Shown here in pieces: positions 2 through 24,652 of a DNA stretch of 33,526 bases. Positions within the stretch are counted from its first letter, which is position 1; each line of letters begins with the position of its first letter. The stretch lies in contig CAYWJO010000029.1 of the NCBI GenBank assembly GCA_964458565.1, positions 9,641-43,166 on the forward strand, in the 5' to 3' direction. Under the pieces are notes generated by a model that searched no databases, was not told the origin of the DNA, and was given only the letters and a program-made list of their open reading frames with translations. Both the position numbers and the translations under genes were made by a program. The DNA comes from an uncultured archaeon. Its GTDB lineage: Archaea; Asgardarchaeota; Thorarchaeia; Thorarchaeales; Thorarchaeaceae.

Positions 2-493
2 TCTGGTTTTGGAGCAGAGACTGATTCGTATGATGGGATCAATCTGACCATATGGGCTCAAATAACAGATGACTCTAGTGGGGTCTATAATGCTTCAGTA
101 TATGTAAACAAACCAGGTTCTGCTACTATGAAACATAAGTGTAATTTCAATGGTTCCCATTGGATAGGTCAAGTGCCAGAACTCGTTTCAGGGACAACCA
201 TAACAATCTGGATGGAAGCATATGACTATGCAGAGAATGTGGCCCAGACACCAACTACTCAAGTGATTGTACCTGAAAGACCCATAATCACAAGTTCTAC
301 TAGTTCATCAGAAACAACCACTCCAAGTACCCATGGTGGAAGCTCAACCGTATCAACATCGAATATGACGACTTCAACGCCAACTTCAACAAGTCCTTGG
401 ACATTTCCGATCGGAATGGAAATGGTAATACTCATCACATTCATTCCGATATTTCTGATAATCATAGTTCTGATAATTCGAAGACGTAAATAA
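2..493 (+). CDS. C-terminal part of a cell-surface protein (Ig-like domain, Ser/Thr-rich linker, C-terminal TM anchor, basic tail); 5' end lies outside the window
   Basis: The frame of ORF 128..493 is open back to position 2 (SGFGAETDSYDGINLTIWAQITDDSSGVYNASVYV...), so ATG128 is internal. It has an Ig-like 'I.A.ITD.SGV...AYDYAEN' pattern, an S/T-rich linker, the hydrophobic stretch VILITFIPIFLIIIVLII and ends in RRRK. Confidence 0.85.
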   Translation, partial: SGFGAETDSYDGINLTIWAQITDDSSGVYNASVYVNKPGSATMKHKCNFNGSHWIGQVPELVSGTTITIWMEAYDYAENVAQTPTTQVIVPERPIITSSTSSSETTTPSTHGGSSTVSTSNMTTSTPTSTSPWTFPIGMEMVILITFIPIFLIIIVLIIRRRK

Positions 494-778: not shown

Positions 779-3700
779 ATGAAAATGAAAAAAGGAGTCT
801 ATCTTCTACTTGTCATATTACCCATGATCATGGGTGGTTTAGTCGCACCAATGCTATTTCAAGAAGATGTGAATGGCACTGGCGATACAAGGAAAGTGGT
901 GCTAGAAACAGGGGAGGAAATCGAGCTCGCCCCAGACGAAGTTCTATATACGTACCGTCTCTCAGATGCACCTACAGCGATAAGCGGAGTAGGTGATCCT
1001 CTCTTAGGCTCGGAATACGGTGTGAGAACAGACTCATTCTCGGCAGAACGAATGAACTACGACTCGGCAACCCAAAACACTGATACAGTCAATCTCTCAG
1101 TCCCCCTCGGCGATGGATGGGAAGGATATCGTATCGATGGTAATGTTACAAGTATAACAGAGAACAGAACATGGGTTGAAAACTCAGACTTCGATGTAAA
1201 CGCAAATTGGACTTATTATACACATGATGAACCCTCATCTTTTGGACCCTCATATACAAATAGCATCAACTCTCAATGGCTCGCGACTGGCGATGCTTCC
1301 GGTGGTGGATGTGCTCTATTCGATCTTGAAACAGGTTATTATTATGATGCAGGAGGAGGTCTCTACGGTTACTGGTATGATGTGGGCGATAAAGCGTATG
1401 CAGTTCAAAACCTGACAATACCAAGAGGCGAAGTGACATCATTGGGATTGTCTGTTGACTACTGGGCTGATATCAATTGGGGAATCCTCACAGGCTTCTT
1501 TGAGGTCTTCGTCTCAATCGGAGACCCTGACAATGGTGGCACATATCTTTGGCAAAAAGCATTCGATGCTATGGGGACAGGCAATTCAGCAAATTGGCTG
1601 TCCTCGGGTTATGTTGAAGTTGAACCAGGACTTGTAACCTTGCCTGATGTTAATCTTTGGTTAGGACTAAGAACAACAGCTTTAGAGTGGTGGAGACCAG
1701 ATGTGCAACCACGAGCCCGTATGGATAATTTGGTCATTTACGTAACCGCAAAAGCTACTCCTGAAGACGTGAATCTCCAAATGAACGGTGTAAATGTACA
1801 GAACGTTTTGGATGGAGGAACACCATTGTTTGGGCTTGGTACAGTTTCATTTACGCCATCCACTCCTTGGAGGAATGATTTTGCGCTTGCTAATTTCTCT
1901 TGGACTCCGACACCAAATCCACCTGATCCGGACTTAGATATTAACATCGATATTGATGCAGATCTAACAGCATATGCAAGAAGGTATAATGTAGATACAA
2001 TTAGTGACACAGAGTTCTATACAACAGGTGAGAATTATTATATTGAGAACTCAACGGATGTGAATTGGGACACCAATTTCTATGTCGCTATTCCAACCGG
2101 ATATGACAGTGAATATTCCTTCAATATTTCAATCCCGTATAACCGCGATATCTATCATGTTGGTGCACCTCAAAGTCGTACGACGAATCTCCTGACTGGA
2201 TGGAATTTAGGAGACCCTGGAGATGAAGCCGTCAATGTTTCGGCATATGCCACCGGTGCAGGAGATTTGAATGGCTTTTGGTTTTTGAAAGGCACCTCGC
2301 CAAATATGATTACGAACATAGAGGTATGGGACGAGGGCTCAAGCTTATGGACTCGAACAATGAATTTCAGAGCGAATGATATAACACGTTTCGATGCGAC
2401 TCTTCCTGCAGATTACGAAAGTGATGTTGTTTACTTCGATATTTATGATTCGAATGGTCAACTCTGGACTTCACTATTAGCTAGTGTAGACGCAACAGGT
2501 CATGCAACAACAGGTTATGTGACACTTGATGCCTTCAATTCCTCAGTTGGTAGTTGGGAAGTTCACGCTTATGTAAATGATGAAGTTTCAAATGGAACTG
2601 TACACAATGTCGGATATTTCAGCAGAGGGTTTAGTATAACACACAGTACAAACATGGCAATAAAATATCCATTAGGTTCTGAAAGCAGTTGGACGGTGAA
2701 TCTGACTTATGGAGAACTCTTCCTTTTGCAAGTACGAGTTAATGACAGTGATAACGGAGAATTGCTAGCTGGGGGTACAATGACTTATGATTGGTCAGGA
2801 GGAAGTGGTTCAGTCAATGACATGGGAACAGGAGAATATAGTGTTACACTTGATACTGGTACACTCCCCTCAAATGGGCACTATATTATTGATCTCACAT
2901 GGGACAGATCCTACTTTGATACGTTAGCAAGACAATTCCATGTAAATGTCATGTTTACAACCAATCTTCTGTCTTCTGATGCGCCAGGTGTAGATGTGCC
3001 ACTTGGATATGATGCAGTAATGGATCTCAGGTTTGAAGATCAAGTAAAAAATCCAATTCCAGGAGCAATCATTGTAAGTAATTGGACTTACGATGACTAT
3101 TCAGTCACTCCGGTTATCGGTAAACCCGGTCATTATACACTTCTTATTGAAACTCAAAACGTACCTATTGGAAATTATCCGATAAGAATCACAGCTACCA
3201 AAGATTTCTATGAACAAAGAACAATCATCCTATCAGTTCAAGTCAGAGAACTTCATACATCAGCAATACCTTCAACAAGTCAGCTCTCTTTACCAGTAGG
3301 ATACTCAACTTCTTTTACCATCACATATACTGATACAGATCATTCAATTCCAATATCTGGATTCGCTAGCTCAATCAGCTGCAATTGGTCTGATATTCAT
3401 CAGGCAGGGGATCAAAATTATACTGTAGTCGAAACAGTGACTCCAGGATTATATGAAGTCACGTTGTTCTCAAAGGATCTTGATATTCTTCAGATCTATG
3501 ATGTTGAATTTCATGTTGACAAATATGGAGCACAAAATCAAACATTCATTGTGACGGTAGAACTTAGGACTCATTTAACTTCATTTTTCCTGGTTGACCC
3601 AGTCAGTCCAACACCTTACACGGGAAATATTGAGGTCCTTGTGTCGTATTTTGATGTAGATACAGCTACAGGAATTGAAAATGGTTCTTTGGTAGGTTAT

Positions 3701-6700
3701 AATGTATTAATAACATTGGAGAGTCCATCTTTACCAGGAATAATCTATACAGTGGTTAATGGCACCAATGCTGGTGAATATCTTATCTTGATTCCTGCTG
3801 AACAGTGGGGCACCATAGGGCCAAAGGTTCTTATTGTATACGCAGATTGGATTGGCCCAACCGTGAAATATTCCGATGAAGTATTATCAACAAGTGTTAA
3901 TATTATTGGAACTCCAACAGATATTTTCTTAGGAGAGAGTCCATCAATCACACAATATGGTGAAAATATATCATTCACAGTAATCTACTATGATGTTGCT
4001 GGTGATACAGGTGTTGTGAATTCAACTGGACCTTTTGCGGGTAATGTGTTGTTTTACATTGAAATTCTTACTACAGGTCAATCTCTAACTCCAGCGGATA
4101 TTTCAATGACAGAAATAGATCCGGTCAGTAGGCCAGGTGAATATCAAATCGAATTCGATACATCACTCTTGAGTGGAATTATCGGTTGTGAGCTAAGAAT
4201 CTGGTTCAATTGGACCGCTGGACAACTTCCGCTATATGAGAATCAAACACTGTTGGTTACTGTGTTTACGACTTATCGTCAGACAACCGTAAGCTGGAGC
4301 CCACTTCCAGTTACACCATATGACGAACTTGTCAACATGTCACTCAATTACAGAGATGTAAGCACAGCAAGTATAATTCTTAATTCACCAAGCTTGGATA
4401 TCAGTATTCAAGAAGCAATTACATACACCCTTTACTATGATGGTGATATAACCGGTGTATTCAAACTTGAAATTGATACGTCCTCCTGGACACCAGGTAC
4501 TCATGTTTTCCATATCGATGTTGTATGGACAGGCAATCCATTCTATCAGAATAGAACCAGTATCGCAATTCCGATTACAGTCCGTATGCGCTACACTGAG
4601 CTTTCCCATAGTTCATACGCTCCTGTTCAATTTGATAACAGCATTACAATCAGATTCACCTATCTAGATCTTGATGATTATTCATCCACCAATATGGATG
4701 GTGGAACATTTACTTTGGATGCAGCTCTTAGTTCATTCTATTCCGTAGATGACAATGGAGATGGAACATATGATATCACATTGAACATTCTTGAAGGTGC
4801 TTTTCCAAGTACAGGGATATACATCATCAATGCTTCAATATTATATGGAGGGACACCTTGGCGATACGCTGAGGATGCGACTGACTTCTTCTACCTAACC
4901 GTAACTCAAAGAAGAACGCAATTGACCAGTGATTTACCAGATCCTGCGCCTTATCTAACGCAAGCTCTCATTACCGTATACTACTCTGATGATAATAATG
5001 ATACTGGCATTACGAATGCAAATGTTTACGCTTCTTGTGCCACTGCTATTCAGGAATTAGAGCTCGGAATTAATTACCAAGTGCAATACATCTCAAATGG
5101 CGAATATCACATTTTAATAAACACTACCGCCTTGGGTACATTTGGCTCTTATTCTATTGTAGTAACAGCTAATTACACCGGTGCACCATTTTACCTTCAA
5201 AGAATTAGAACAATCGTAATTGAGGTATCAAGACGTCCTACATCTCTCACTGTATCAAAATCACCACTAAACACTCCCTTTGCCCAAAACGTGACTTTTG
5301 AGATTACAATTGAAGACACACTTGATTCTTCTGGAATCGATCTCGATAAATCAAAGCTGATTGTGATGTACAGTGGTTCAATCCTTGTATTAAATTCTGA
5401 ATACTCATTATTGGGTTCCAATGGGGTGTATACAATCTCTATTAATTCAACCCTACTGACTTCTGTCCTTGTTTCAGGATTATCATTACAAGTTAGTCTA
5501 TTCTGGGGAGATGTTGAACCCTTCTATGCAAATGATACCACATCAACCCAAGTGACTGTGGTATCAAGATTCACTCAGGTTGAAGTCCTCTCAACTCCAG
5601 GTGCGTTTATATTCTCAAACGCCACTGCACTCTTTCGATACAGTGATTACTTAACAACAAACCCCATAAGTGGCGCAGAGGTGGATTTAGCTTGCCTCAA
5701 CACGACATCCTTTGATTATTGGGTATATGATATGCTTGATGGAAGATATCAAGTCCTTGTGGATACATCAACCCTCGCCACACTTGGAAAATACTATTTC
5801 ACGGCAAACTTCACGTGGGTGAATCAAACAGGGCTCAATATTCCATACTATCAAAATATAACACTGATTTCCTTCTCACTCACAATCAATCCTGTATCAA
5901 CAGCCCTGAATTTTGAATTAATTTCAACTACGGTATTTCTTGGAGATACGATTTACGCTAATGTTACCTTCATCAATATTCTAACAGGAAAGGGTATTGC
6001 TGGAAGTATAATTATGACAGATTGGGTTGAGCGATACGGAACCAGCGCAACATGGACGTTTGTCAGTGATGGTATATACAATCTTACTATTAGTACATCG
6101 TCACTTGATGCACAACTCTATTCCTTTGAGATAAATGCTACAGCAGGATTCCATCAAAACAGAACAATCACAGCGGATGTTCTCATTTCATCGCTCCCAA
6201 TTAATATTGAAGTTTCTACTTGGCCAGAAACTCCTGTTTGGGGAGATATCTTAGTGATACAGGCGAATGTTACAGATACATTCAAGGGCTTACCACTGAT
6301 TGGTGCACAAGTAAACCTCACGATCAGTGGCACATTATACACAATGATAGAAGTTGACGATGGACTGTATAATGCAACAATACCAGCAGAGGAGTATGAT
6401 GCTGGAGAGTATTCCATCACAATTATAGCTTCCAAGCTTAACCATGAAACTCGACAACGTACTTTTCAAATCCGTTACCTTAAGCTCGATCCAATTCTTA
6501 TTGCTTCACTTGACGAACCATTAGCTGTCAGTGGTCAATCGGTAGTTCTTAGAGCAGATTATCTTCTAGACTCAGATTCTTCACCAATCACGGTTGGTCA
6601 ATTGACTTTCAGTTGGCAAGGAAAGTCAGGAATTCTAAATTGGGATTCTGTTGACGAGCAGTGGATAGGCTCTGTCAATGTTGCTGATGTGCAAATTGGT

Positions 6701-8635
6701 ACATATCAAATCCTAGTTCAAGCGTCCTCGACTAATTACAAGAGCGCTAGTTATCAGGTCACCCTAGAAGTGAGAGAAGCGAATACTCAATTGCGAGCTC
6801 TTAATGATCAAAACATCATTGTTGCAGTTTCAGGTGATGATGTTGAAATCACAGTCTACTTCAATAATACGGACCTTAACAGTCCAATCACGAATGCAAC
6901 AGTCTTCTATGATATCACTGATGCAATCAATGGCTCTCTGTTAGACATTGGTGGAGGATATTATGCTGCAAATATTTCAACGACTTCACTTGAAATTCTT
7001 GATTGGGTACTAACTGTGTCTGCTATCAGACCAGGATTTTCATTTGCATCTTTACAGTTTGAAATTAGTATCTCCAAAATACCAACTGAGGTTGTTGTCA
7101 TTGGTGATGCACTCATAATAGCATATTACGGAGAGAATGTTACATATTACTTTGAGTTTAATGATGCACACAATGGAATAGGTATTGAAAATGCCACTCC
7201 GACATTCACACTCGAAACGGAAACAGGATTCCTAGATGATTTGGGTGATGGTGAGTATTCTCTAACACTAAACACATCTGTTGTGGCTTCTTCTATCACA
7301 CAAAGAAAGGTATACATCACATTCATCAAAGGCACACAATATCGGATATCTTATGTACAAGTCGGGTTAATTGTTGAAGGAATTAGTACTGAGATAATCG
7401 GTGAAGAGGAAGTTGATGTACCGATAGGATTCGACTACACTCAGATGTTTTCATTTAGAGATACAATACATGACATATTACTAGGAGATGCAAATGCAAC
7501 TGCAAGATGGGAATTTGGCTGGATAACAATAACCAGTCACAATAATGGGTCCTATAGCTTTGGTCCTGCTGATACTGGATTGGAGCGACTTGATGTACGT
7601 TCTGAGCCTTATGAAATTACAATTCGAATATTCAAGGCGAATTACAGTGTATCAGAATTGAAATTATACCTCACAATAAGACAAAGACATACACAATTGA
7701 TTGTAGTAGAACCCAATTATCCGGTTTATGCAGGTACGCCCTTCGAAATTCGTCTTACTTACGTTGATACAGATTCAAATATCGGAATATTAGATGCCAT
7801 AAATACAACTGAAACATCGGGTATACTTGAATGGACGGCGTATTCAAATGACCTCCAAAATGGTACGTATATCTTTGGTTTCGTAACTCCTTCAGATGGG
7901 CTTTTTGAACTCACAATTGGCCTTTCAAAGACAGACTATGAAACCTCGTTCATAATCATTACAGTCTTTTCCACAGTGACTCCAGAACAACAGGCAATAG
8001 CTCAGACTTTCCAATATCTTGGAATTGCTGTCATTCTTGGGTCAATGTTAGCTGCTGCTTGGTTTAGACACTTCTCAATTCCACCACTTCTAAGAAAGAC
8101 CCGAAGAATGGTTTCTGCATTACGAGGTGGTACAGTACCATCACCTGCTAACGTAAGAAGCCGTCGAGCAATGATATTAGATGTTATGAATGATGATTTG
8201 AAACCATTGCATATTAGCAAGACATTTGATGATATTTCCTCATCAACCGTGGATGTATCAGTTCTAGATGTTGATCAGCTTCTAGGAGAGTTGCAACAAG
8301 TTGTAGGACTTACTGAGGATGACATAGTCGTTTTACGTAGAGATTTAGACAAAATGCGTCCTAGTGATCGCGCTGGTTTTCTAGGTGAAGTCCTCAAACA
8401 GGAACGCTCCAGAAGAGCTCGCGAGATAGCTGAGGCAAAACTTGCCGAGGATGAAGGACCAGATATCTCGATTGAGAGGAAGCTTTCTGATGAAGAGATT
8501 GAAGACATACGCAATCGACTTCTGAAGATGGGTATAGAACCAGACGAAGTTGAGATAATGGTGGAACAGGCTAAGAACCTCTCAAAAGCTGAGATAGAAG
8601 CATTACTCGATCAGATAGGAGGTGGCGAAGAATGA
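779..8635 (+). CDS. Giant type I membrane surface glycoprotein A (signal peptide, CBM/lectin-like head, 17 Ig/cadherin-like repeats, TM, ~190-aa cytoplasmic tail)
   Basis: 2618-aa ORF. N-terminus MKMKK plus a hydrophobic helix; beta-rich repeats with the pattern 'R.T.L...P.G...I...Y.D.D...I.GA...G.G.Y...IDT..L..G.Y.I...'; dozens of N-x-S/T sequons; TM FQYLGIAVILGSMLAAAWF at about 8009-8065; charged helical tail. Confidence 0.92.
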   Translation: MKMKKGVYLLLVILPMIMGGLVAPMLFQEDVNGTGDTRKVVLETGEEIELAPDEVLYTYRLSDAPTAISGVGDPLLGSEYGVRTDSFSAERMNYDSATQNTDTVNLSVPLGDGWEGYRIDGNVTSITENRTWVENSDFDVNANWTYYTHDEPSSFGPSYTNSINSQWLATGDASGGGCALFDLETGYYYDAGGGLYGYWYDVGDKAYAVQNLTIPRGEVTSLGLSVDYWADINWGILTGFFEVFVSIGDPDNGGTYLWQKAFDAMGTGNSANWLSSGYVEVEPGLVTLPDVNLWLGLRTTALEWWRPDVQPRARMDNLVIYVTAKATPEDVNLQMNGVNVQNVLDGGTPLFGLGTVSFTPSTPWRNDFALANFSWTPTPNPPDPDLDINIDIDADLTAYARRYNVDTISDTEFYTTGENYYIENSTDVNWDTNFYVAIPTGYDSEYSFNISIPYNRDIYHVGAPQSRTTNLLTGWNLGDPGDEAVNVSAYATGAGDLNGFWFLKGTSPNMITNIEVWDEGSSLWTRTMNFRANDITRFDATLPADYESDVVYFDIYDSNGQLWTSLLASVDATGHATTGYVTLDAFNSSVGSWEVHAYVNDEVSNGTVHNVGYFSRGFSITHSTNMAIKYPLGSESSWTVNLTYGELFLLQVRVNDSDNGELLAGGTMTYDWSGGSGSVNDMGTGEYSVTLDTGTLPSNGHYIIDLTWDRSYFDTLARQFHVNVMFTTNLLSSDAPGVDVPLGYDAVMDLRFEDQVKNPIPGAIIVSNWTYDDYSVTPVIGKPGHYTLLIETQNVPIGNYPIRITATKDFYEQRTIILSVQVRELHTSAIPSTSQLSLPVGYSTSFTITYTDTDHSIPISGFASSISCNWSDIHQAGDQNYTVVETVTPGLYEVTLFSKDLDILQIYDVEFHVDKYGAQNQTFIVTVELRTHLTSFFLVDPVSPTPYTGNIEVLVSYFDVDTATGIENGSLVGYNVLITLESPSLPGIIYTVVNGTNAGEYLILIPAEQWGTIGPKVLIVYADWIGPTVKYSDEVLSTSVNIIGTPTDIFLGESPSITQYGENISFTVIYYDVAGDTGVVNSTGPFAGNVLFYIEILTTGQSLTPADISMTEIDPVSRPGEYQIEFDTSLLSGIIGCELRIWFNWTAGQLPLYENQTLLVTVFTTYRQTTVSWSPLPVTPYDELVNMSLNYRDVSTASIILNSPSLDISIQEAITYTLYYDGDITGVFKLEIDTSSWTPGTHVFHIDVVWTGNPFYQNRTSIAIPITVRMRYTELSHSSYAPVQFDNSITIRFTYLDLDDYSSTNMDGGTFTLDAALSSFYSVDDNGDGTYDITLNILEGAFPSTGIYIINASILYGGTPWRYAEDATDFFYLTVTQRRTQLTSDLPDPAPYLTQALITVYYSDDNNDTGITNANVYASCATAIQELELGINYQVQYISNGEYHILINTTALGTFGSYSIVVTANYTGAPFYLQRIRTIVIEVSRRPTSLTVSKSPLNTPFAQNVTFEITIEDTLDSSGIDLDKSKLIVMYSGSILVLNSEYSLLGSNGVYTISINSTLLTSVLVSGLSLQVSLFWGDVEPFYANDTTSTQVTVVSRFTQVEVLSTPGAFIFSNATALFRYSDYLTTNPISGAEVDLACLNTTSFDYWVYDMLDGRYQVLVDTSTLATLGKYYFTANFTWVNQTGLNIPYYQNITLISFSLTINPVSTALNFELISTTVFLGDTIYANVTFINILTGKGIAGSIIMTDWVERYGTSATWTFVSDGIYNLTISTSSLDAQLYSFEINATAGFHQNRTITADVLISSLPINIEVSTWPETPVWGDILVIQANVTDTFKGLPLIGAQVNLTISGTLYTMIEVDDGLYNATIPAEEYDAGEYSITIIASKLNHETRQRTFQIRYLKLDPILIASLDEPLAVSGQSVVLRADYLLDSDSSPITVGQLTFSWQGKSGILNWDSVDEQWIGSVNVADVQIGTYQILVQASSTNYKSASYQVTLEVREANTQLRALNDQNIIVAVSGDDVEITVYFNNTDLNSPITNATVFYDITDAINGSLLDIGGGYYAANISTTSLEILDWVLTVSAIRPGFSFASLQFEISISKIPTEVVVIGDALIIAYYGENVTYYFEFNDAHNGIGIENATPTFTLETETGFLDDLGDGEYSLTLNTSVVASSITQRKVYITFIKGTQYRISYVQVGLIVEGISTEIIGEEEVDVPIGFDYTQMFSFRDTIHDILLGDANATARWEFGWITITSHNNGSYSFGPADTGLERLDVRSEPYEITIRIFKANYSVSELKLYLTIRQRHTQLIVVEPNYPVYAGTPFEIRLTYVDTDSNIGILDAINTTETSGILEWTAYSNDLQNGTYIFGFVTPSDGLFELTIGLSKTDYETSFIIITVFSTVTPEQQAIAQTFQYLGIAVILGSMLAAAWFRHFSIPPLLRKTRRMVSALRGGTVPSPANVRSRRAMILDVMNDDLKPLHISKTFDDISSSTVDVSVLDVDQLLGELQQVVGLTEDDIVVLRRDLDKMRPSDRAGFLGEVLKQERSRRAREIAEAKLAEDEGPDISIERKLSDEEIEDIRNRLLKMGIEPDEVEIMVEQAKNLSKAEIEALLDQIGGGEE
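2642..7975 (+). repeat. Protein-level tandem array of 17 Ig-like repeats (~95-125 aa each) in glycoprotein A
   Basis: Repeat starts read by eye: HST, TTN, LHT, HLT, TPT, RQT, RYT, RRT, RPT, RFT, VST, LPI, LDP, ANT, IPT, IST, RHT. The repeats are diverged at the DNA level. Confidence 0.8.
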
Positions 8636-11600
8636 AACACACCAAGAAACAAGTATTCATCGGATTGCTGATAATGGTCTTCGCATTCCAGATATTAGCA
8701 TTAGCGAATCCACTAGGTGATCCACTCCGTTCGATGGACAACAACTCATCAGCAAGAGACAACTCTACATTCGTTGATATTGGGAACGGAGATATTATTG
8801 AGGTAGGACCAGATGAACAACTACATAGCTTTATTCTCACTGAGAATGGATGGGTAGAATACACGGGAACCTCATCTCACCTATCCGGATCTGAATATGG
8901 TAACAGTACCACCACCACCTCAGGAATAGAGATGAATTATCTTCCAACCAATGTAACGAGCGATTCGTATGTAGACATATCAACTGGTTCTGACTGGGAA
9001 GGATACGAGACTTTAGTTACATTCAATGATGTGACCGAGAATAGGACTTGGATTCAAAATCCAACATTCGATCAGGACGCATCTAGTTGGACAGTTACAA
9101 CTTCAAACACAGGATCTTATAGCACACCTGTTTCTGCTTGGAATTCAACTGGACATGGAACAGGCGATGGATGTATTGATCTTGAGATAAACTCGAATAG
9201 TGGGGGAGCTCCATATTATTATGATGCTGGAGACCGTGCTTATGCAACTCAAACAGCCTCAATAAGCCGAGGAACTGTTGTTTGGGCAGGATTCAGTGCT
9301 GACTATTGGGCAGATACTAGAGATGATGTTCATTATGGAATGACAGGTACTTTTGCGCTTTACGTGAATATAGAAGGTAACTCTATCTGGACGGTTGTAT
9401 TCAGTGATGTTGGACAAGAGGAAACTTGGTATAATTCAGGACTGGTAACTGTACCAACGACTACATTTAATCTTCCCACCGATACAAATGTGAATGTGGA
9501 ATTTGGTCTTGAAAGCCGTGCATCAGTAGGATACGCACCAAATATTTTGCCTGCTGCAAAGTACGATAACTTCATTCTCTATATGAAGACACAAACAACT
9601 CCAAGTAGTATCAATCTCGAGATGGATGGCAACTCCGTGAGTGATTATTCTGGGTATGGTTCAGGATATGTGAATGAGATACCTGCTTCACCATGGACCA
9701 AGAATCCAATCCGACTTAATTTCACTTGGGCACCAACTCCAATCAATCCCATCCCCAACTTAACAATCACAGTAGAGTTTGACGTTACTGTGAATATGTA
9801 TACTCGGAAGTATGATACAAGAACAGTGTCAGAAATCGATGCAACTGCGTATGGAGAAAGATTTGTAGTTCAGAATGGAACTGCAGTTAATTATACAACG
9901 TATTTCTACGCTAACATTCCACCTGGTTACGTGAATCGGTATTTCTATAATATCACGATCCCTGATAACCGTGATGTCACCTTTATTGCTAAACCACTTG
10001 CACCTGGAACGAATCTTACAAGCGGATGGAGTGGAGGTCAATTTGGTGATGGTTATGTTAACGTTTCAGCATATGAGGTTGCTACGGCTGCTGGGCGTTA
10101 TGGATACTGGAGAGTCCTTAGTCAAGGAACCAACATGATAACCGATCTTGAAATTTTTGATCCCTCCACATCAACATGGAAACATTCAGTTGATTTGAGA
10201 GCAGGAAACACATCGCAGATTAGAGTCTATGCAGGCGTAGAATTTGAGGATTCAATTGTAAATATTACTATACTTGACCCGCAGGGTAATTCATGGTTCA
10301 GTGCTAATGCTACCGTTGATGCGACAGGTTATGCAACATCAACACAATTCACCGTTAATGGAGATAATGCTGACGCTGGTAGTTGGATGGTCCTAGCATT
10401 TACAAATGATGTTGGCTCAAATGGGGTTTGGCGGTCTACTGGATTCTTCCAGAGACCATTTACTGTTTCTCACTCATCAGAACTATTGATGCATTATCCG
10501 ACTGATGCAATTGGAACCTGGGTCACCAATGTTACATACGGAGACCTCTTACTCATTATTGTCAAGGCTAATGATACAGATAGTGCGATCTTAGTTGCTG
10601 GGGGCGTATTAGATTACTCATGGGCTGCTGGGTCTGGTCAATTCGATGATTCAGGTAACGGACAGTATACGAAAGTAGTTGATACTTCAACACTGAGTGG
10701 TAAGGGTCAATATGCAATGACACTTACATGGACGCATTCATCGTACGATGTTGCAATAGCAACTCTTACAATCAACGTGAATTATGCGTCAACATTGACC
10801 TCACCAGATTACCCAGGAATATCAGGACCTATTGGATCTGAACAAGATTTCACTGTGAAACACGCAAATGTGAATGGCACGAGTATTCTTGGAGGAATTG
10901 TTACATGTAATTGGTCACAACCTTATACTGTAACTCCTCTTGGACAGGGTTCCTATAGAATCGAGCTTGACACAACCTCACTCCAAATTGGAGTGTACGT
11001 AGTAGAGGTATATGCGAAAGCTTCCTTTGTAGAAGGAACATCGATGATAATGTATATCGAGGTTCGAGAGATCTATAATACGGTCACCTATTCAGCTAAT
11101 CAACTCTCTATTCCTGTAGGAGAATCCGATTCGTTTGTTATCACATGGACTGATACTGATACAGGAAATCCAATACAAGTTGGAGAGAGTTATATAACAT
11201 GTAATTGGACATCGTTCCATTCATCAGGCGAACAGAATTACACAATTGCAGAAGAAACACCTGGTAAATATCGAGTGACAATCTTCACAGAATCAGATGA
11301 TCCACTGACTGTACCTGATGAATATTTCTTAGTAGTGTTTATGGTAAATCGTTCAAACTACCAAAATCATACATTTTCTATTGGAGTACAGATAAGAAGT
11401 CACAACACTTTGTTTATCCTTGATGCTCCCATCGAACAAACGGAGTATGGGACTAACATCGTTGTAAGAGTATTCTATAAGGATACTGATCTCAATTTGG
11501 GAATTAAGAATGATACATATTATGTGCGGATTGTTGTAACGACACCAGAGATAATACTGTGGTACACATCAATTGATTCGATTCTTGGTGATGGGCACTT

Positions 11601-14600
11601 CAACATTACAATCCCAAGTAGTCAATGGGGAGCTATAGGTTGGAGGAATCTCACAATAACAGCGAGTTGGATAGGACCTGTCCAGAAGTATTTCGAGGGA
11701 ACAATAGACACACAGGTTAGGGTTTTAGGAACTGAAACCGATTTGTATCTTGAATTAGCACCATCTGCTACTTACTACCAGAATAACTTCACATTTAGTG
11801 CTGTATACTGGGATGCTATCAACTCAACAAGAATCTCAAGCCCTGGTAACGTGTATATTGTTATCGAACCCATTACAACAGGACATCCAGTCACTCAAGA
11901 TGACTTCATGATTTCAGAATCCAGTACTATACCTGGTACATATGAGTTTGGAATAGATAGCTCGCAATTCTTGAGGTTAGGCACCTTCCGATTTAGGCTG
12001 TCATTACTGTGGTCCAAAGGAGTGTCCCCACTTTATGAAAATCAGACTATGACATTCACACTCATCGTATTAGCTAGACCAACATACATTGATTACAATC
12101 CGGTTCAAACTACGCCATTTAATGAAACTGCTGAATTATCATTCACTTTTGTTGACGCATTTTCTATAACAAAGATTGTGAACTCATCAAGTATTGAGAT
12201 TTCCATAAATGAAGGAACAGTATCGTATACGATTAGCTATAATTCATTAGAGCGTCTTTTCTCAATCTACATCGATACTGAATCTTTAGGAGGAGTTGGA
12301 TCATTTATTCTACACCTCAATTTGACCTATTCTGGAGAACCATTCTATACATCACACCAGAACGATGCCTTTACGGTCACAGTTGAGCTAAGAAATACTC
12401 AGCTCTCTCATCTGTCGTTTGCACCAGCTCAATATGGAAACAATGTCACAATAGAATTTGTATTCACAGATCTTGTATCACAATCTACAAGCGGAATGAC
12501 AGGATCTCTTAGTCTTAATGTCTGGTTGGTAGGATGGTATACAGTCCAACCACAGGGAAATGGTCATTATCTTGTAGAAATAGATACCACGGGATTTGCT
12601 AGCGATGGGTTGTACGTAATAACAGCAACAATTACTTACACAGGAAGCAACTTTGCAGATGACGCAAATGAGGACTTTGGTTTCACAGTATTAAAACGGG
12701 TTACTCAACTTGGATATGATAGCCCAGATCCTACCCCATATCAGTCAAACATAACGTTCATAGTATCATATACAGACGACACAACCGGGGCTGGTATTTC
12801 AGGAGCAAATATTTACGTTAGCTGTGACACATCCGATGATATCTTAGTCAATGGTTCAAATTACTGGTACGAGAATCCATTTGCAGGACAATATATCATA
12901 TACGTTGATTCAGTTGCTTTAGGTGCTCCAAACACCTACTCATTAAATGTCACAGTGACGTGGACAGATACTCCATTCTACGAAACAGTGTCTAGATTTA
13001 TATCATCGCGAGTGACTGAGAGAACCACACAAATTTTGATCACCAAGACACCAGGAGAAACGCCTTACCTTGAGAATGTTACTTTCAGATTCAGATACAA
13101 TGATTTCCTAACTGGTGAGAGTATTAGTATTCAGAAACAACATATCTCTCTAGCATTTGGACCAACATTGATTGAAATTGCCTCAGTTAATTTTAGTTTT
13201 ACATACCAGGATCCATACTACGAAATCAGTTTTAGCTCGGCAGTACTAAGTGAAACATCACTCGGTTCATATACTCTTGAATTAACAATAGATCGTAGTG
13301 GCTCAATACCATATTATGCAATAAGAAGCAAAACAACATCAGCAACTGTCATTGAGAGACCGACCCAGATATTCTTCCCACTCGTGCAGGATACACCATT
13401 TGGTGATACAATAATCATAGATCTCGATTACGTGGATTATCTGACTGGTGGTGGTATTGACGACGCAGATATTCAAGTGACATCACTAAATCTCACAACT
13501 CCTTCGTTCACATTAGTTAGATTAACGGAGGGTTCGTACAAACTCCAAATTCCGAGTAATCAATTTGGTCGATCAGGTATTGTATACTTTGATTTCACAA
13601 TATCCATTTCAGGAGCACCCTTCTATGCAAGCAGATCAGCAACTGATGTAATCGCTACCATACGATTGATTCAGGTTTCACTAACGGCTGATACTCCAGC
13701 ACCCGGTTCTATTCCAGTTGGTGCCCCAATGGTAATTAATCTCACACTCATTGATTATGACCATGATACAACTATAGATAATGCTACAATTTTCACAGAT
13801 TGGGATATTCTTCAGAATAGGAACTATGTTGTGGATGTACTAGGCAATGGCAAGTATAGAGTTACGTTAAACATGACCGGACTTCTGGCACAAGAGTATA
13901 CATTGCACGCCTGGGTTGTGAAGACCAATTATGAACTAGAAATAATCACTTTTAGTGTACAACCAGGTGTTGCCACAATTGAGATACTTCTTGACAGAAC
14001 AACATACTATGTGGATTGGGGACAAGATATCTTTATTGAAGTACAGATTCTTGATCCCTTCTATGGTTCTCCTGTGCCAGGTATGAATGTAACACTCACA
14101 TGGGGTGCAATTGAATACATATTTGCTGATATTGGAGAGGGAATCTATCAATTATTTGTAAGCAGTAGAAACCAAGATGCAGGATTCTATACTCCCACGA
14201 TATCAGCTTCATATGAATTCTATCAGACTCGACAAAAGACATTCAGTTTAGTAGTCACTCGAGCCACAGGTCAGATAATTCCAGAATTATCAACAGTGTA
14301 CGTAGTAGTTGGGACTCAGACTGAATTCACAGTCTACCTGAATGATACGATTTCAAATCTCCCAATTGATGGCGCAACAGTCGAGATGGAGTGGAAAGAG
14401 CACATCATTTCAATGACATATAATGGAACACCAGGATTCTATAATACAACATTAGATGTTGGAGGATTAGCTATTGGAATCTATGATCTGAGCTTCACCG
14501 GAATAGCCACAAATCATGATTTTCTAAAAGTGACTGTTGACGTTTCAGTTACTCCGGTACCAACATCGATATCATTACTCAGTGGCGTAACATCGCCTAG

Positions 14601-16392
14601 ACCGATTTTTGGAGACAGTTTCGATGTCACTATTGGTTACAATGATACATATTATCTTGGATCAATTAGTGGTGCTACAGTTAGCTATCTATTAGGTCCA
14701 ATCGGTGGCACTTTCACTGAAAACCCAGATGGAAGTTACTCAGCTTCAATAGATACAAGTCAGATTGGAGCTCGGGTTCTAAGGTTACAAATCAGGGCTA
14801 CTAAAACAAACTATAGCACCGGTAGTCTAACCCTATTCGTTAATATCCGACCAATTCCCACTGAAGTAACTGTTGATGATAGCTTAAAAGATGGGTACTT
14901 TGGTGATAATGTTACGTTCACATTCCACCTTCGTGATACACACAATGATGAAGATATCATAAACGCATCACTGTTTGTGGAGTGGGACGGAGGGACATAT
15001 GCATTCAGAGAGATCGGAGGAGGATTCTATGAGGTTGAAATAAACCTGAATCAGACAATACCTCGATTATATGAATTATCCGTCATATTCACTCGACTAA
15101 ACTATGCTAGTACATCTAATCGGCCTGGTGTTGTTCTGAGAGCAACTCCTGGAGAGATAGTGGGTCCATCAAGTGTTTCAATACCATTTAACGATTCTAT
15201 CACCATTTCATTCATGGTAAATAATACACTCAGAAATAGTTTAATCTTAGATGTTTCAGGAGCTGCCTATTGGCAGACAGGTACTGTTTCGTTGCTTGAA
15301 CCACAAGAAGATGGAACATTCACTCTCAATATTCCAGATGACGTGCCAATGGGGACGTACAGCATGGATATTGTCTTTGAGAGTGTCTTGTATACCATCT
15401 CACCATTAACTATCGAAGTAGTAGTTAGACCAATAGAAACAGCTTTGTATACGGATGAGCAGCAGATTTTGACTCAACGTGGAGCAGCAATCATATTGAC
15501 AGTAAGTTTTATAGATTTGGATCATGATATTGGTATATCTGGAATTCTACCAAATGTCACCTATGACGACACTCTGGTCATTTACTATCCAGGATATACT
15601 AGTGAGCCATTTGATAATGGTACCTATCAGCTTTATTTCACAGTCATCGGATCAAACCAATTCACAATCAAGATAGGATTTGAGAAGGAAGATTACTTTA
15701 CACCAGAACCATTGATTTTCACCATTAATTCAGACATTACTGAAGAACAGAGATTACAGCAAGTAATCGGTTATCTTGGCGGATTCAGCTTCTTTGTTAT
15801 TGCATTAGCACTGGCTTTGTATGTTAGAATTTGGAGTATTCCTTGGATTATACGTGCTCTGAATAGACTAATCAGTATGCTCAGTAAAGGTAGAGTTCCC
15901 AAACCAGTTGATGTAAGAACTAGAACAGAATTGGTCAGTGAATTTGTAAATGATGAATTAAAGCCTGTTGGAATTCAGAAAGAAATTGAAGATATCACTG
16001 GGTATTCTATCAGAATTGATGTGCCTGAGGTTGATGCATTACTGGAAAGATTAGCAGATATCACCAACCTTGGACCTGATGAACTTGCAGCATTCCGAGC
16101 AGACCTCTCAAGGATGAAAGCTAGTGAAAGACCTGGTTTCCTCAGAGAAGTTATCGAACAAGAAGAAGCTAGACGTGCAGATGCATTAGCTGAAAGAGAT
16201 GGAGTGAGGAAAACTGATAGAGATGCTGAACTCCTCGGAGCACAACCCGAGGAGCTTGAGAGTATCCGCAAGAAACTCCGACAGAAAGGAATGGCAGATT
16301 CTGAAATTGAAATTATAATTCAACAAGCTGAGAATCTTTCGAAGGCTGATCTCGAGGCACTACTAGACAGTCTTGGAATTCGACTCGATTAA
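8632..16392 (+). CDS. Giant type I membrane surface glycoprotein B, full-length paralogue of A
   Basis: 2586-aa ORF. Its ATG overlaps the TGA of A (ATGA) and is preceded by GGAGGTG. Collinear motifs shared with A include GSEYG, WEGY, TENRTW, DYWAD, NF.W.PTP, VNVSAY, VDATG and CNW. TM VIGYLGGFSFFVIALALALYV at about 15763-15825; homologous tail. Confidence 0.92.
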   Translation: MKHTKKQVFIGLLIMVFAFQILALANPLGDPLRSMDNNSSARDNSTFVDIGNGDIIEVGPDEQLHSFILTENGWVEYTGTSSHLSGSEYGNSTTTTSGIEMNYLPTNVTSDSYVDISTGSDWEGYETLVTFNDVTENRTWIQNPTFDQDASSWTVTTSNTGSYSTPVSAWNSTGHGTGDGCIDLEINSNSGGAPYYYDAGDRAYATQTASISRGTVVWAGFSADYWADTRDDVHYGMTGTFALYVNIEGNSIWTVVFSDVGQEETWYNSGLVTVPTTTFNLPTDTNVNVEFGLESRASVGYAPNILPAAKYDNFILYMKTQTTPSSINLEMDGNSVSDYSGYGSGYVNEIPASPWTKNPIRLNFTWAPTPINPIPNLTITVEFDVTVNMYTRKYDTRTVSEIDATAYGERFVVQNGTAVNYTTYFYANIPPGYVNRYFYNITIPDNRDVTFIAKPLAPGTNLTSGWSGGQFGDGYVNVSAYEVATAAGRYGYWRVLSQGTNMITDLEIFDPSTSTWKHSVDLRAGNTSQIRVYAGVEFEDSIVNITILDPQGNSWFSANATVDATGYATSTQFTVNGDNADAGSWMVLAFTNDVGSNGVWRSTGFFQRPFTVSHSSELLMHYPTDAIGTWVTNVTYGDLLLIIVKANDTDSAILVAGGVLDYSWAAGSGQFDDSGNGQYTKVVDTSTLSGKGQYAMTLTWTHSSYDVAIATLTINVNYASTLTSPDYPGISGPIGSEQDFTVKHANVNGTSILGGIVTCNWSQPYTVTPLGQGSYRIELDTTSLQIGVYVVEVYAKASFVEGTSMIMYIEVREIYNTVTYSANQLSIPVGESDSFVITWTDTDTGNPIQVGESYITCNWTSFHSSGEQNYTIAEETPGKYRVTIFTESDDPLTVPDEYFLVVFMVNRSNYQNHTFSIGVQIRSHNTLFILDAPIEQTEYGTNIVVRVFYKDTDLNLGIKNDTYYVRIVVTTPEIILWYTSIDSILGDGHFNITIPSSQWGAIGWRNLTITASWIGPVQKYFEGTIDTQVRVLGTETDLYLELAPSATYYQNNFTFSAVYWDAINSTRISSPGNVYIVIEPITTGHPVTQDDFMISESSTIPGTYEFGIDSSQFLRLGTFRFRLSLLWSKGVSPLYENQTMTFTLIVLARPTYIDYNPVQTTPFNETAELSFTFVDAFSITKIVNSSSIEISINEGTVSYTISYNSLERLFSIYIDTESLGGVGSFILHLNLTYSGEPFYTSHQNDAFTVTVELRNTQLSHLSFAPAQYGNNVTIEFVFTDLVSQSTSGMTGSLSLNVWLVGWYTVQPQGNGHYLVEIDTTGFASDGLYVITATITYTGSNFADDANEDFGFTVLKRVTQLGYDSPDPTPYQSNITFIVSYTDDTTGAGISGANIYVSCDTSDDILVNGSNYWYENPFAGQYIIYVDSVALGAPNTYSLNVTVTWTDTPFYETVSRFISSRVTERTTQILITKTPGETPYLENVTFRFRYNDFLTGESISIQKQHISLAFGPTLIEIASVNFSFTYQDPYYEISFSSAVLSETSLGSYTLELTIDRSGSIPYYAIRSKTTSATVIERPTQIFFPLVQDTPFGDTIIIDLDYVDYLTGGGIDDADIQVTSLNLTTPSFTLVRLTEGSYKLQIPSNQFGRSGIVYFDFTISISGAPFYASRSATDVIATIRLIQVSLTADTPAPGSIPVGAPMVINLTLIDYDHDTTIDNATIFTDWDILQNRNYVVDVLGNGKYRVTLNMTGLLAQEYTLHAWVVKTNYELEIITFSVQPGVATIEILLDRTTYYVDWGQDIFIEVQILDPFYGSPVPGMNVTLTWGAIEYIFADIGEGIYQLFVSSRNQDAGFYTPTISASYEFYQTRQKTFSLVVTRATGQIIPELSTVYVVVGTQTEFTVYLNDTISNLPIDGATVEMEWKEHIISMTYNGTPGFYNTTLDVGGLAIGIYDLSFTGIATNHDFLKVTVDVSVTPVPTSISLLSGVTSPRPIFGDSFDVTIGYNDTYYLGSISGATVSYLLGPIGGTFTENPDGSYSASIDTSQIGARVLRLQIRATKTNYSTGSLTLFVNIRPIPTEVTVDDSLKDGYFGDNVTFTFHLRDTHNDEDIINASLFVEWDGGTYAFREIGGGFYEVEINLNQTIPRLYELSVIFTRLNYASTSNRPGVVLRATPGEIVGPSSVSIPFNDSITISFMVNNTLRNSLILDVSGAAYWQTGTVSLLEPQEDGTFTLNIPDDVPMGTYSMDIVFESVLYTISPLTIEVVVRPIETALYTDEQQILTQRGAAIILTVSFIDLDHDIGISGILPNVTYDDTLVIYYPGYTSEPFDNGTYQLYFTVIGSNQFTIKIGFEKEDYFTPEPLIFTINSDITEEQRLQQVIGYLGGFSFFVIALALALYVRIWSIPWIIRALNRLISMLSKGRVPKPVDVRTRTELVSEFVNDELKPVGIQKEIEDITGYSIRIDVPEVDALLERLADITNLGPDELAAFRADLSRMKASERPGFLREVIEQEEARRADALAERDGVRKTDRDAELLGAQPEELESIRKKLRQKGMADSEIEIIIQQAENLSKADLEALLDSLGIRLD
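10471..15735 (+). repeat. Protein-level tandem array of 17 Ig-like repeats in glycoprotein B
   Basis: Repeat starts: HSS, YAS, IYN, HNT, TET, RPT, RNT, RVT, RTT, RPT, IQV, GVA, ATG, VPT, IPT, TPG, IET. Each unit resembles the same-numbered unit of A. Confidence 0.8.
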
Positions 16393-16401
16393 TGCACTAT
16401 T

Positions 16402-16440
16402 GGTGCACCATTTTATGATGGGTGCACCTCCTCTTTCCTT
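16402..16440. terminator. Hairpin between convergent genes, probable terminator
   Basis: GGTGCACC at 16402-16409 and 16421-16428 form an inverted repeat, followed by the pyrimidine tract TCCTCTTTCCTT, in the 50-bp gap between convergent stop codons. Confidence 0.55.
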
Positions 16441-16442
16441 AA

Positions 16443-17468
16443 TCAATCAGGTACTGTATTATCCGATGATTTTCGTCTTCTGCGTGTCACTATGGTTAAT
16501 GCACCAAATCCAACAATGACGCTGAACCAAAGAGTCACAAATCTAATCAATAGAGTTGCGGTGCTTGCGATGGTAAGAGTTATTCCAAGAATTGTAGTCA
16601 TCACTGCAACTGCAAATGTTTCATATCCTCCGAGGCCTCCTGGAAGAAATATGAGAATAGCTCCAACCGACGATGCCGCAGCATGAATGAATGTAACTTG
16701 CGATAGTAGTATCAACGAGGCCATGGTTAGTGAGGGTAGTCCAACCCCAGTCAATATACTCAACAATAGCCAGAGTTCAAGACATTCCATAAACCAACCA
16801 GGAATGCTGATTGCAGTTCCAACAAGCATTGGTTTTGGAGAGAGCGTTTTAAGCATTGTATCCTCTACAAGGTTCATGCTATTCTGAAAGCGCTTCAATG
16901 GACCCAAGCCTGTGAGCTTGTCTAAGACTTTCCTGTAGAATTTCTCATTACTGAGTACAAGTGCCCCAACAAAGAGCATACCTCCAACAATGAGTAAGAG
17001 AATCAGTTCGTTTCCAACAGATATTCCAATTATGAATGAGAAGAGAGCGAGTAAAACCATCGCAAGTAGATCAGTGACTCGTTCTGATATAACGACAGGA
17101 GCAGTCTTTGCAATTGGAGTTCCATCTATCTCATTTATAAAATACCCTTTGATTACCTCACCAACTTTTCCAGGAGTGACTGTAAGTGTGAAACCAGCCA
17201 AGAAAACACTGAAGCTATCTCTGTGTGATAAGTATACATCGATTCGATGGAGGTAATATTGCCATTTGATATACCTTATTGCATAATTGAGAAAAGATAA
17301 TGCCATCATCGTTGGTAGAATCCACCAAAGCTCAAGAGATGCTAGTAATCCAACAACCTGGTCGATTTGACCAATCCAAGCAATGATTAGATAGATAATC
17401 ACGCCAAGCAGAACAAAGACAACAACCTTTGTTGGGCTGATGAACGTGGAGTCTGCCTTGTCATTCAC
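16443..17468 (-). CDS. UPF0104 / lysylphosphatidylglycerol-synthase-TM-like polytopic membrane protein (putative flippase or lipid-linked sugar transferase)
   Basis: Motifs R..KW..YL, TPGKVGE..K, SER..DLL, PGGLG.YE and IRF.TLWF, with about 8 hydrophobic helices. The likely start is GTG at 17468, overlapping the PHP stop (GTGA), rather than 17549. Confidence 0.85.
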   Translation of the reverse strand: MNDKADSTFISPTKVVVFVLLGVIIYLIIAWIGQIDQVVGLLASLELWWILPTMMALSFLNYAIRYIKWQYYLHRIDVYLSHRDSFSVFLAGFTLTVTPGKVGEVIKGYFINEIDGTPIAKTAPVVISERVTDLLAMVLLALFSFIIGISVGNELILLLIVGGMLFVGALVLSNEKFYRKVLDKLTGLGPLKRFQNSMNLVEDTMLKTLSPKPMLVGTAISIPGWFMECLELWLLLSILTGVGLPSLTMASLILLSQVTFIHAAASSVGAILIFLPGGLGGYETFAVAVMTTILGITLTIASTATLLIRFVTLWFSVIVGFGALTIVTRRRRKSSDNTVPD

Positions 17469-18154
17469 ACTTTGGGTATCGGCCACTTTGAATACCTCCG
17501 AATTCTTTGCCAAATCGAACTGGGAATATGAACCCAGAAGAAGGAACAATGACCACTGATTTGTGTGTGTCCTTTCCTTAGCTCCTCGTAAACATCTTCA
17601 GGAGTCTCAATACCCTGAAGCCATGTCTTTGCATGACCAATTTCTAAGAATGAATGTGCGTCGCTACCAGCAGTCATGGGTTTCCTCAGTCGCTCCGCAA
17701 GCCTCTGGGCTTGAGTATTGAATAAGTTGATTATGTTTCTTGAATTGATTCCTTCAATAAGATCAACATGTTTCTTTATGATTACCTCAGAGAGTCCTTT
17801 CCTAATTGCAGTGTGTTTACGTGTAATATCATAAGGATGAGGAAGAATTACGAATCCATTCTGGTCATGAATATCCTCTGCAATTTCAACAAATGATCGA
17901 TTCTCAATGGGTTCACTAATGAACAAACCTATAATTTCTCCCGAGTCAGTCGATTTGAATTCACAGGCGGGAATTAGAAATCTTTCATCTCGGATAATTG
18001 TCTTACGTAAAGAAGGTCTCCAATGCTCAGTCAATGCGATTCCTTTTAGTCCAACTCGCTTCATCTGTTTAAAGAGTGTTCTTGGATTATTCAGCCCATC
18101 CTTAGAGTGAATGGTATGAAAGTGGAAATCGAAAGCCGATAATTCTTGACTCAT
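17465..18154 (-). CDS. PHP-domain metal-dependent phosphoesterase
   Basis: PHP metal ligand motifs DFHFHTIHSKDG, TEH, PHP, EGIN and GSDAH. Confidence 0.9.
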   Translation of the reverse strand: MSQELSAFDFHFHTIHSKDGLNNPRTLFKQMKRVGLKGIALTEHWRPSLRKTIIRDERFLIPACEFKSTDSGEIIGLFISEPIENRSFVEIAEDIHDQNGFVILPHPYDITRKHTAIRKGLSEVIIKKHVDLIEGINSRNIINLFNTQAQRLAERLRKPMTAGSDAHSFLEIGHAKTWLQGIETPEDVYEELRKGHTQISGHCSFFWVHIPSSIWQRIRRYSKWPIPKV

Positions 18155-18166
18155 TCATTCACCGCG

Positions 18167-19153: not shown

Positions 19154-19167
19154 TGCTATAATTCCTA

Positions 19168-24415: not shown

Positions 24416-24652
24416 TGTAATTCTACTCCAAATTTTCACTCATGAGATGAACATGTTTCGCTCTGAAGGTATAGTTCAGTCTAGTGAAATTTACTCACAT
24501 TAAGGTCTTCCGCTATGTGAGGTTCTCTTACCTGTTTTCGATAAGGTATTACGGTTAAACCTTGTGTTGTATGATACTTTCAGATCTCGTTTCACTTCAA
24601 TATGCTTAAATCACCGCATAGTTCAGCTCGCGTTAAATTAGAGGTAGAGCTA

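Follow-up and report, generated by a model that had tools for sequence, protein, structure and literature searches.

Overlapping genes in Thorarchaeota encode giant paralogous surface proteins with length-matched stalks that may form a hetero-oligomeric fiber

In three types of overlapping gene pair from Asgard archaea, the two encoded surface proteins appear from their sequences to have stalks matched in length (17+17, ≈23+23 and 5+5 Ig-like units), whereas the stalks of singly encoded relatives vary. The 17+17 pair, genes A and B, lies in a window of 33,526 nucleotides (the whole stretch of DNA analyzed) from an uncultured member of the Thorarchaeaceae. We propose, with a probability of roughly one half, that A and B form a parallel, pseudo-symmetric hetero-oligomeric surface fiber that arose from a homo-oligomer and is anchored inside the cell by its tails. 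The argument for pairing is an evolutionary one.

Organization of the A/B gene pair

As the original prediction held, A and B are paralogs of about 2,600 residues (2618 and 2586) joined by an ATGA overlap. The ATG of B (8632) overlaps the TGA of A (8633–8635), and the GGAGGTG Shine–Dalgarno (SD) sequence ends 7 nt upstream (Table 1). The predicted end-to-end alignment was also recovered, as a single BLASTP HSP (A 4–2614 with B 5–2582, 32% identity), and both proteins have the same layout: a signal peptide, a head of ≈480 residues, a domain termed U0, 17 repeats of ≈100 residues each, a transmembrane (TM) helix and a tail of ≈190 residues. The alignment offset drifts from just 0 to −35 residues, and gaps the size of a unit are absent. 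Each unit of A was expected to find its best match in the unit of the same number in B; this mutual register was seen as the best non-self match in 30 of 36 cases with single sequences and in 35 of 36 with profiles. Units within A or within B are 22% identical to one another, with a maximum of 34%.

Colinearity alone is expected after any whole-gene duplication. A recent duplication or gene conversion was considered and is ruled out, in agreement with the earlier view that the pair is too diverged for it: identity is 32%, and across genomes the A proteins group apart from the B proteins, with the B protein of one genome (G037) placed between the two groups. Searches of Pfam, NCBIfam and PDB sequences with A and B returned nothing above cut-off. 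The TM helix of A is marginal in the source genome (KD 1.68, compared to an ortholog median of 2.2). N-x-S/T sequons occur at 2.6–2.7 per 100 residues in the ectodomains versus 0.2–0.3 in the tails, which fits a type I topology.

Table 1. Features of the A/B locus and related loci. Positions are those of the window unless a contig or locus is given.
Feature	Location	Strand	Description
Gene A	779..8635	+	2618-aa type I membrane surface protein; 58 N-x-S/T sequons
A signal peptide	779..859	+	Basic then hydrophobic; hydropathy peak aa 9–27; end approximate
A head	860..2299	+	All-beta, includes CBM-like jelly roll; fold inferred from B model
A unit U0	2300..2638	+	MG2-like Ig domain; dissimilar to stalk repeats
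A stalk	2639..7972 (aa 621–2398)	+	17 Ig-like units, 97–121 aa each
A transmembrane helix	8009..8065 (aa 2411–2429)	+	From hydropathy and alignment
A cytoplasmic tail	8066..8632	+	189 aa; juxtamembrane helix motif and two three-helix modules
Coupling site	8618..8635	+	GGAGGTG Shine–Dalgarno (8618–8624) within the last codons of A, and ATGA stop/start overlap
Gene B	8632..16392	+	2586-aa paralog of A; 58 sequons
B head	8707..10128	+	aa 136–321 (nt 9037–9594) form a galactose-binding-like/CBM jelly roll in the AlphaFold2 model
B unit U0	10129..10467	+	MG2-like Ig domain
B stalk	10468..15732 (aa 613–2367)	+	17 Ig-like units, register as in A; units 1–2 modeled as beta-sandwiches
B transmembrane helix	15763..15819 (aa 2378–2396)	+	From hydropathy
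B cytoplasmic tail	15820..16389	+	190 aa, all-helical
C'/D' loci	L047/L048 (G020 C13), L083/L050 (G027 C75), L144/L143 (G157 C6)		Tail module 2 (C-terminal) tripled in D'
Promethearchaeota short pairs	L167:6073–13517, L183, L184, L185		≈1,250 aa each, 5+5 units; flanked by TM proteins sharing the juxtamembrane motif
Tail-only paralog	G000 C3:149223–149645; L165:7224–7646	− (C3)	140–190 aa, no ectodomain, often one N-terminal TM

Predicted folds of the head, stalk and tail

AlphaFold2 models were obtained for B residues 2–811 and for the TM helix with the tail; units 3–17 are assigned as Ig-like by profile similarity to units 1–2. The model of residues 2–811 was all-beta, with a mean pLDDT of 88.8. 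Residues 136–321 matched CBM70/CBM16-type modules (VIA Z 11–12.9, rmsd 2.6–4.0 over 125–169 residues) and U0 matched the MG2 domain of alpha2-macroglobulin (Z 11.0, rmsd 2.2), while the units after U0 matched generic Ig-like strings in the structure search. The head is thus predicted to contain a carbohydrate-binding-like jelly roll, a fold match that reveals no ligand.

The model of the TM helix and tail consisted of confident helices (pLDDT 88.6, pTM 0.40), arranged as the juxtamembrane motif followed by two three-helix modules on a flexible linker. The best Pfam match of the tail, to RecX_HTH1, was weak and below cut-off (E 0.004), and no enzymatic or known signaling domain was found at the Pfam cut-off. 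Fold searches gave a best VIA Z of 6.9 over 62 residues, no Foldseek match at E ≤ 0.001 and Atlas TM scores of at most 0.26 by query. None of these matches to the predicted model rises above common helical arrangements, a result that does not in itself demonstrate a new fold. A FliG/MgtE-N-like assignment of the tail found no support in the profile and fold searches.

The tail family comprises 205 clusters at E ≤ 0.001 among 1.8 billion representatives, and a number of other Asgard families contain weaker matches. A tail-only paralog shares the juxtamembrane part with the A/B tail (HHalign probability 97.4) and is present in 35 of 36 family genomes, including those that lack A/B. This protein is a candidate adaptor or regulator of the giant proteins. 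Atlas feature searches with the tail and the tail-only paralog gave no usable match.

Conservation of the pair in Thorarchaeota

The head was detected in 30 of the 36 family genomes (three of them weakly) and in the sister family, and relatives are labeled Candidatus Thorarchaeota. Wherever the 3' end of A had been assembled, it was followed by B with a start codon overlapping the stop of A (35 of 35 junctions read, 28 + 7), and GGAGG was present at 27 of the 28 junctions inspected in detail. In the source genome, 147 of 1098 closely spaced ORF pairs on the same strand (13%) could have a −4/−1 overlap, 80 of them with a strong SD, so that a single overlap is unremarkable and it is the retention that constitutes the signal. 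The synteny of the flanking genes is conserved as well.

The number of units is 17 in every one of the 55 complete stalks, at an ortholog identity of ≈40–55%. Stalk lengths are 1754–1778 residues for A and 1747–1766 for B in a first set of loci, to which a second set contributed ten of the 55 stalks. The adjacency and matched repeat number anticipated by the original prediction are therefore conserved, and the matching recurs in all three overlapped pair types. The equal length it proposed applies to the stalks, but not to the heads, which differ in length between A and B. About half of the A orthologs, though not the A of the source genome, contain an NHL beta-propeller of ≈290 residues inserted near residue 160, bringing A often to ≈2,900 residues in total versus ≈2,590 for B; no B has one. 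Since the heads of the partners differ in length, head-to-head register is not required.

Among conserved alignment columns, 299 are shared by A and B and 38 differ, which fits a pseudo-symmetric bundle of homo-oligomer descent. Units U3–U9 are more conserved than U12–U17, and the conservation of the tail equals that of the best stalk units.

The pair has been duplicated as a unit in one genome (G002), giving the order A-B-A-B, and deleted as a unit in another (G003), where the remnant fuses the first ≈70 codons of A to the last ≈35 of B. This remnant (L042:8973–9344, G003 C51) is a pseudogene, created when a deletion of ≈15 kb brought the beginning of A up against the end of B. For neighboring genes, being lost together in a single deletion is trivial. 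No A/B match to the head query was found in the closed chromosome G025. The pair is thus widespread, yet dispensable in at least two lineages. At one locus (L014:9536–18295, G033 C3), A is broken into five frames; other giant genes of the same assembly are also split, probably by long-read indels.

Stalk length in single, loosely spaced and overlapped relatives

Because the units of A and B are so diverged, stasis of their number could be trivial, and a control from within the family was needed. The tail profile recovers further giants that have the same repeat and tail as A/B. Two of these, C and D, occur on contig C3 of the source genome (C3:108048–124847 and C3:96715–106293, − strand), with lengths of 5599 residues (≈36 units) and 3192 residues (≈21 units); RecA/RadA-like and GcvH-like genes, named by eye, lie between them. 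Over a tree of 9.2 substitutions/site, the C/D genes that are single or loosely spaced take on at least 7 stalk layouts, from about 21 to about 36 units; A and B, over 16.7 substitutions/site, have no layout change (rough conditional p about 0.002). Within-array divergence is equal in the two sets (22% identity between A/B units and 24% between C/D units). The premise of the original prediction, that repeat arrays expand freely, is weak for units this diverged, but single genes of the same family do vary. Stalk length also varies among the sister E-type singles. In loosely spaced C/D pairs, the unit counts of the partners are 1 to ≈15 apart; the two genes are separated either by gaps of 67–460 nt, in which C is followed by a terminator-like run rich in pyrimidines, or by other genes.

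In a second pair type, C'/D', stop and start codons overlap at each of the five junctions read, and the partners are 36–38% identical. The stalks are 2414–2425 residues long in both partners (≈23 units), while the heads differ by 1,300–2,400 residues. In the closed chromosome G025, D' is found without an adjacent C', with its stalk length unchanged.

The third type comes from homologs labeled Promethearchaeota, which have the head, U0, repeat type and juxtamembrane motif of A/B and short tails. Tandem pairs were found in five genomes, one of them split across two contig ends, with a clear overlap in at least three of the five. Each of the ten members has a stalk of 535–552 residues (5 units), at 40–53% identity. 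The twelve Promethearchaeota singles have 1, 4, 4, 5, 5, 5, 5, 6, 6, 7, 9 and 9 units, in stalks of 162–965 residues. Single or clustered homologs with a head, 1–30 units, a TM helix and related tails also occur in other Asgard families (L168:2337–4943 in G038, L025, L169 and L170). The three matched pair types represent few independent events, and duplicates begin matched.

Genomic neighborhood and other surface proteins

Upstream of A, at window positions 2–493 on the + strand (G000 C29:7839–10133), is the end of a gene for a surface protein of 764 residues, which has a linker rich in Ser/Thr, a TM helix and a basic tail and is conserved at this place in 12 loci. Between the stop of B and the next, convergent gene (16402–16439) is a hairpin (GGTGCACC arms) with a pyrimidine run, terminator-like by eye. 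The convergent cluster that follows (16443–20250, − strand) encodes LPG_synthase_TM, PHP, UbiA-type prenyltransferase and DUF362 proteins, is kept downstream of B in about 30 loci and may supply lipid-linked sugar for surface glycosylation. Further along the − strand are genes for a 612-aa protein with an N-terminal PIN-like domain (22601–24439) and a 389-aa leucine-rich-repeat protein (26703–27872).

When source-genome ORFs were ranked by ribosomal-type codon usage, actin and an ORF of the EF-1alpha locus came at the top, and two other large surface proteins were in the top 0.5%. The latter are secreted proteins of 1611 and 1958 residues (G000 C3:17989–22824 and C6:528–6404), and are better candidates than A/B for main envelope proteins. 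Elsewhere on C3 (143208–145885, + strand; also L165), some 20 kb away from C/D and a few kb away from the tail-only gene, is a cluster encoding a small GTPase that carries a longin-like domain at its N terminus, recognized by eye.

Models for A/B function

We infer that A and B are made from one transcript through stop/start coupling and would assemble into two subunits of one membrane-anchored fiber, probably N-glycosylated. The two proteins would lie side by side in one membrane, as a dimer or a small bundle, with their 17-unit stalks in register. Such a hetero-oligomer would have descended from a homo-oligomer through tandem duplication. In the homo-oligomer, gain or loss of a unit would alter every subunit equally and be tolerated; in a two-gene bundle, a change in either gene would put the stalks out of register and be purged. 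This constraint would give frozen pairs alongside variable singles. The CBM-like heads, together with the optional NHL propeller of A, would bind glycans or particles up to ≈70–80 nm out if the rod is straight (18 domains at an assumed ≈4 nm each), and the helical tails would anchor or cluster the fiber on a cytoplasmic partner. The likely job is that of a glycan-binding tether or fiber, held from inside. Against the heteromer reading, there are few conserved A- or B-specific residues to mark an asymmetric interface. Also against it, the lone D' in G025 keeps its length, and four of the twelve Promethearchaeota singles likewise have 5 units.

It is possible, though with much lower probability, that A and B are co-expressed but separate proteins, each of fixed reach, that serve as spacers or rulers to clear a glycan coat or span a cell–cell gap, with differing head specificities. 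The lone D' in G025, which keeps its length, speaks for such a model, as do the unlike heads of the partners and a head/Ig layout resembling the MAM-Ig-FN ectodomain of RPTPmu, which is a fixed-length spacer. However, paralogs with the same tail in the same genome span about 21 to 36 units, lengths so unlike that no single envelope distance can set them, and the matching tracks gene overlap in three pair types of unlike absolute length.

More doubtful is a model in which a tall lattice or coat, similar to an S-layer, is built from A and B as its two subunits, with some Ig units forming the lattice, the rest a pillar, and a height well under 70 nm. There is a precedent in PySLP, the S-layer protein of Pyrobaculum arsenaticum, whose 19 Ig-like domains stand 37 nm tall (10.64898/2026.08.21.746120), and the better conservation of U3–U9 than of U12–U17, the dense sequons and the conserved downstream cluster of putative glycosylation genes would all suit a lattice. 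Conversely, A and B have average scores in the codon-usage ranking (58th and 51st percentile), a weak proxy for abundance and a weak argument against a main coat; PySLP-type tails are short and basic, unlike those of A/B; and imaged Loki and Heimdall cells, which are not Thorarchaeota, had no ordered S-layer (PMC9834061, 10.1101/2025.11.06.686947).

We consider it quite improbable that the length match and overlap were simply inherited, unselected, from an old tandem duplicate whose diverged units seldom recombine. Such inertia would be consistent with the low identity within arrays (22%, maximum 34%), the frequency of overlaps in the source genome and the conserved flanking synteny, but equally diverged C-family arrays changed at least six times on a shorter tree, and the stop/start overlap was present at every junction read, with GGAGG at 27 of 28. 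Least probable of all is an integrin-like signaling heterodimer, in which a head that has bound its ligand would signal across the membrane to tails in contact with the actin cytoskeleton or with small GTPases: folded, strongly conserved tails, the tripled module 2 of D' and a family-wide ectodomain-less paralog would accord with it, but GFFKR, NPxY and cadherin calcium motifs are absent, A and B are paralogs, the tail has no enzymatic or known signaling domain at the Pfam cut-off, and a string of 17 beads would presumably make a poor allosteric wire.

The hetero-oligomeric fiber reading, if its pairing is true, would make A/B a clear natural example in which a homomer-to-heteromer transition froze the number of repeats. 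Both the 5+5 pairs (≈1,250 residues per protein) and the 190-aa tails are of a size suited to expression, so that pairing and tail partners can be tested directly. The control with other members of the family, the short pairs of Promethearchaeota and the tail-only paralog are new here. By cryo-ET, Asgard cells display complex protruding surface structures, whose proteins were not assigned and which were proposed to mediate the cell–cell contacts invoked for eukaryogenesis (PMC9834061). The A/B family provides named candidates for such structures, giant in Thorarchaeota and shorter in Promethearchaeota-labeled and other Asgard genomes. On a speculative and rather unlikely wider view, this would be an Asgard-specific adhesion-receptor family that repeatedly went from homo-oligomers to obligate length-matched hetero-oligomers, with the tail and the ectodomain-less paralog tying adhesion to a cytoplasmic scaffold: an independent archaeal counterpart to the adhesion complexes of animals, and a candidate source of the protruding densities on Asgard cells.

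Comparison with known systems

No description of the A/B family was found in a literature search that reached few subscription journals. In mode of action, A/B would be closest to a head–stalk–anchor adhesin or a pillar of the PySLP type. A/B share with integrins and cadherins a single-pass layout, a large ectodomain and a cytoplasmic tail, and had been predicted to resemble them. That likeness did not hold up. Neither an FG-GAP propeller nor a vWA/MIDAS domain was found in A/B, the modeled head being all-beta with a CBM-like jelly roll; FG-GAP-like matches occurred in 5 of 45 sequences, at unconserved places, and the optional propeller of A is of NHL type. The tail motifs GFFKR and NPxY/F were absent (0/23 and 0/22), the cadherin calcium motifs DxND[NH] and [LI]D[RY]E were found in 0 and 3 of 45 sequences, and there was no cadherin Pfam match. 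Whereas integrin alpha and beta are non-homologous, A and B are colinear paralogs at 32% identity whose conserved residues are mostly shared, a pattern more in keeping with a pseudo-symmetric oligomer than with an alpha/beta pair. On these sequence grounds, A/B are neither integrins nor cadherins. The Asgard integrin-like family fam15271 adjoins tubulin/FtsZ genes (PMC9258230), a gene context unlike the A/B locus.

PySLP is a ≈290-kDa protein with 19 tandem Ig-like domains and a C-terminal TM helix that forms a hexameric pillar; it is a homo-hexamer encoded by one gene, its short basic tail ends in Lys, and domain number varies among its homologs (10.64898/2026.08.21.746120). Compared by description, A/B likewise have tandem Ig-like domains, a signal peptide and a single C-terminal TM helix, and the parallel oligomeric stalks of PySLP have a proposed counterpart in A/B. 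The differences are that A/B are two overlapped paralogs, with CBM-like heads, helical tails of 189/190 residues and a frozen unit number. The A/B family tail is folded, unlike the short tails of archaeal S-layer proteins, and by the tail criterion A/B are not members of the PySLP type.

The receptor phosphatase RPTPmu (MAM-Ig-FNIII; PDB 2v5y, 2c9a) resembles A/B in its jelly-roll head, Ig-like domains, one TM helix and cytoplasmic part, with a Z of 10.6 for the MAM module. At 10–14% identity this is a fold analogy only; A/B have no phosphatase domain, and their stalk is far longer. Bacterial fibrillar and RTX adhesins with extender repeats (e.g., PDB 6xi1, 6xi3) also present a carbohydrate-binding-like head on a string of Ig-like beta-sandwiches, although the fold matches between their repeats and those of A/B are generic. 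These adhesins are single chains of variable repeat number and are not known to have a folded cytoplasmic domain. The fibrillar-adhesin layout of distal head, Ig-like stalk and surface anchor is seen in the architecture and predicted fold of A/B, which would make them putative adhesins that differ from the bacterial ones in being a conserved pair with a TM helix and tail.
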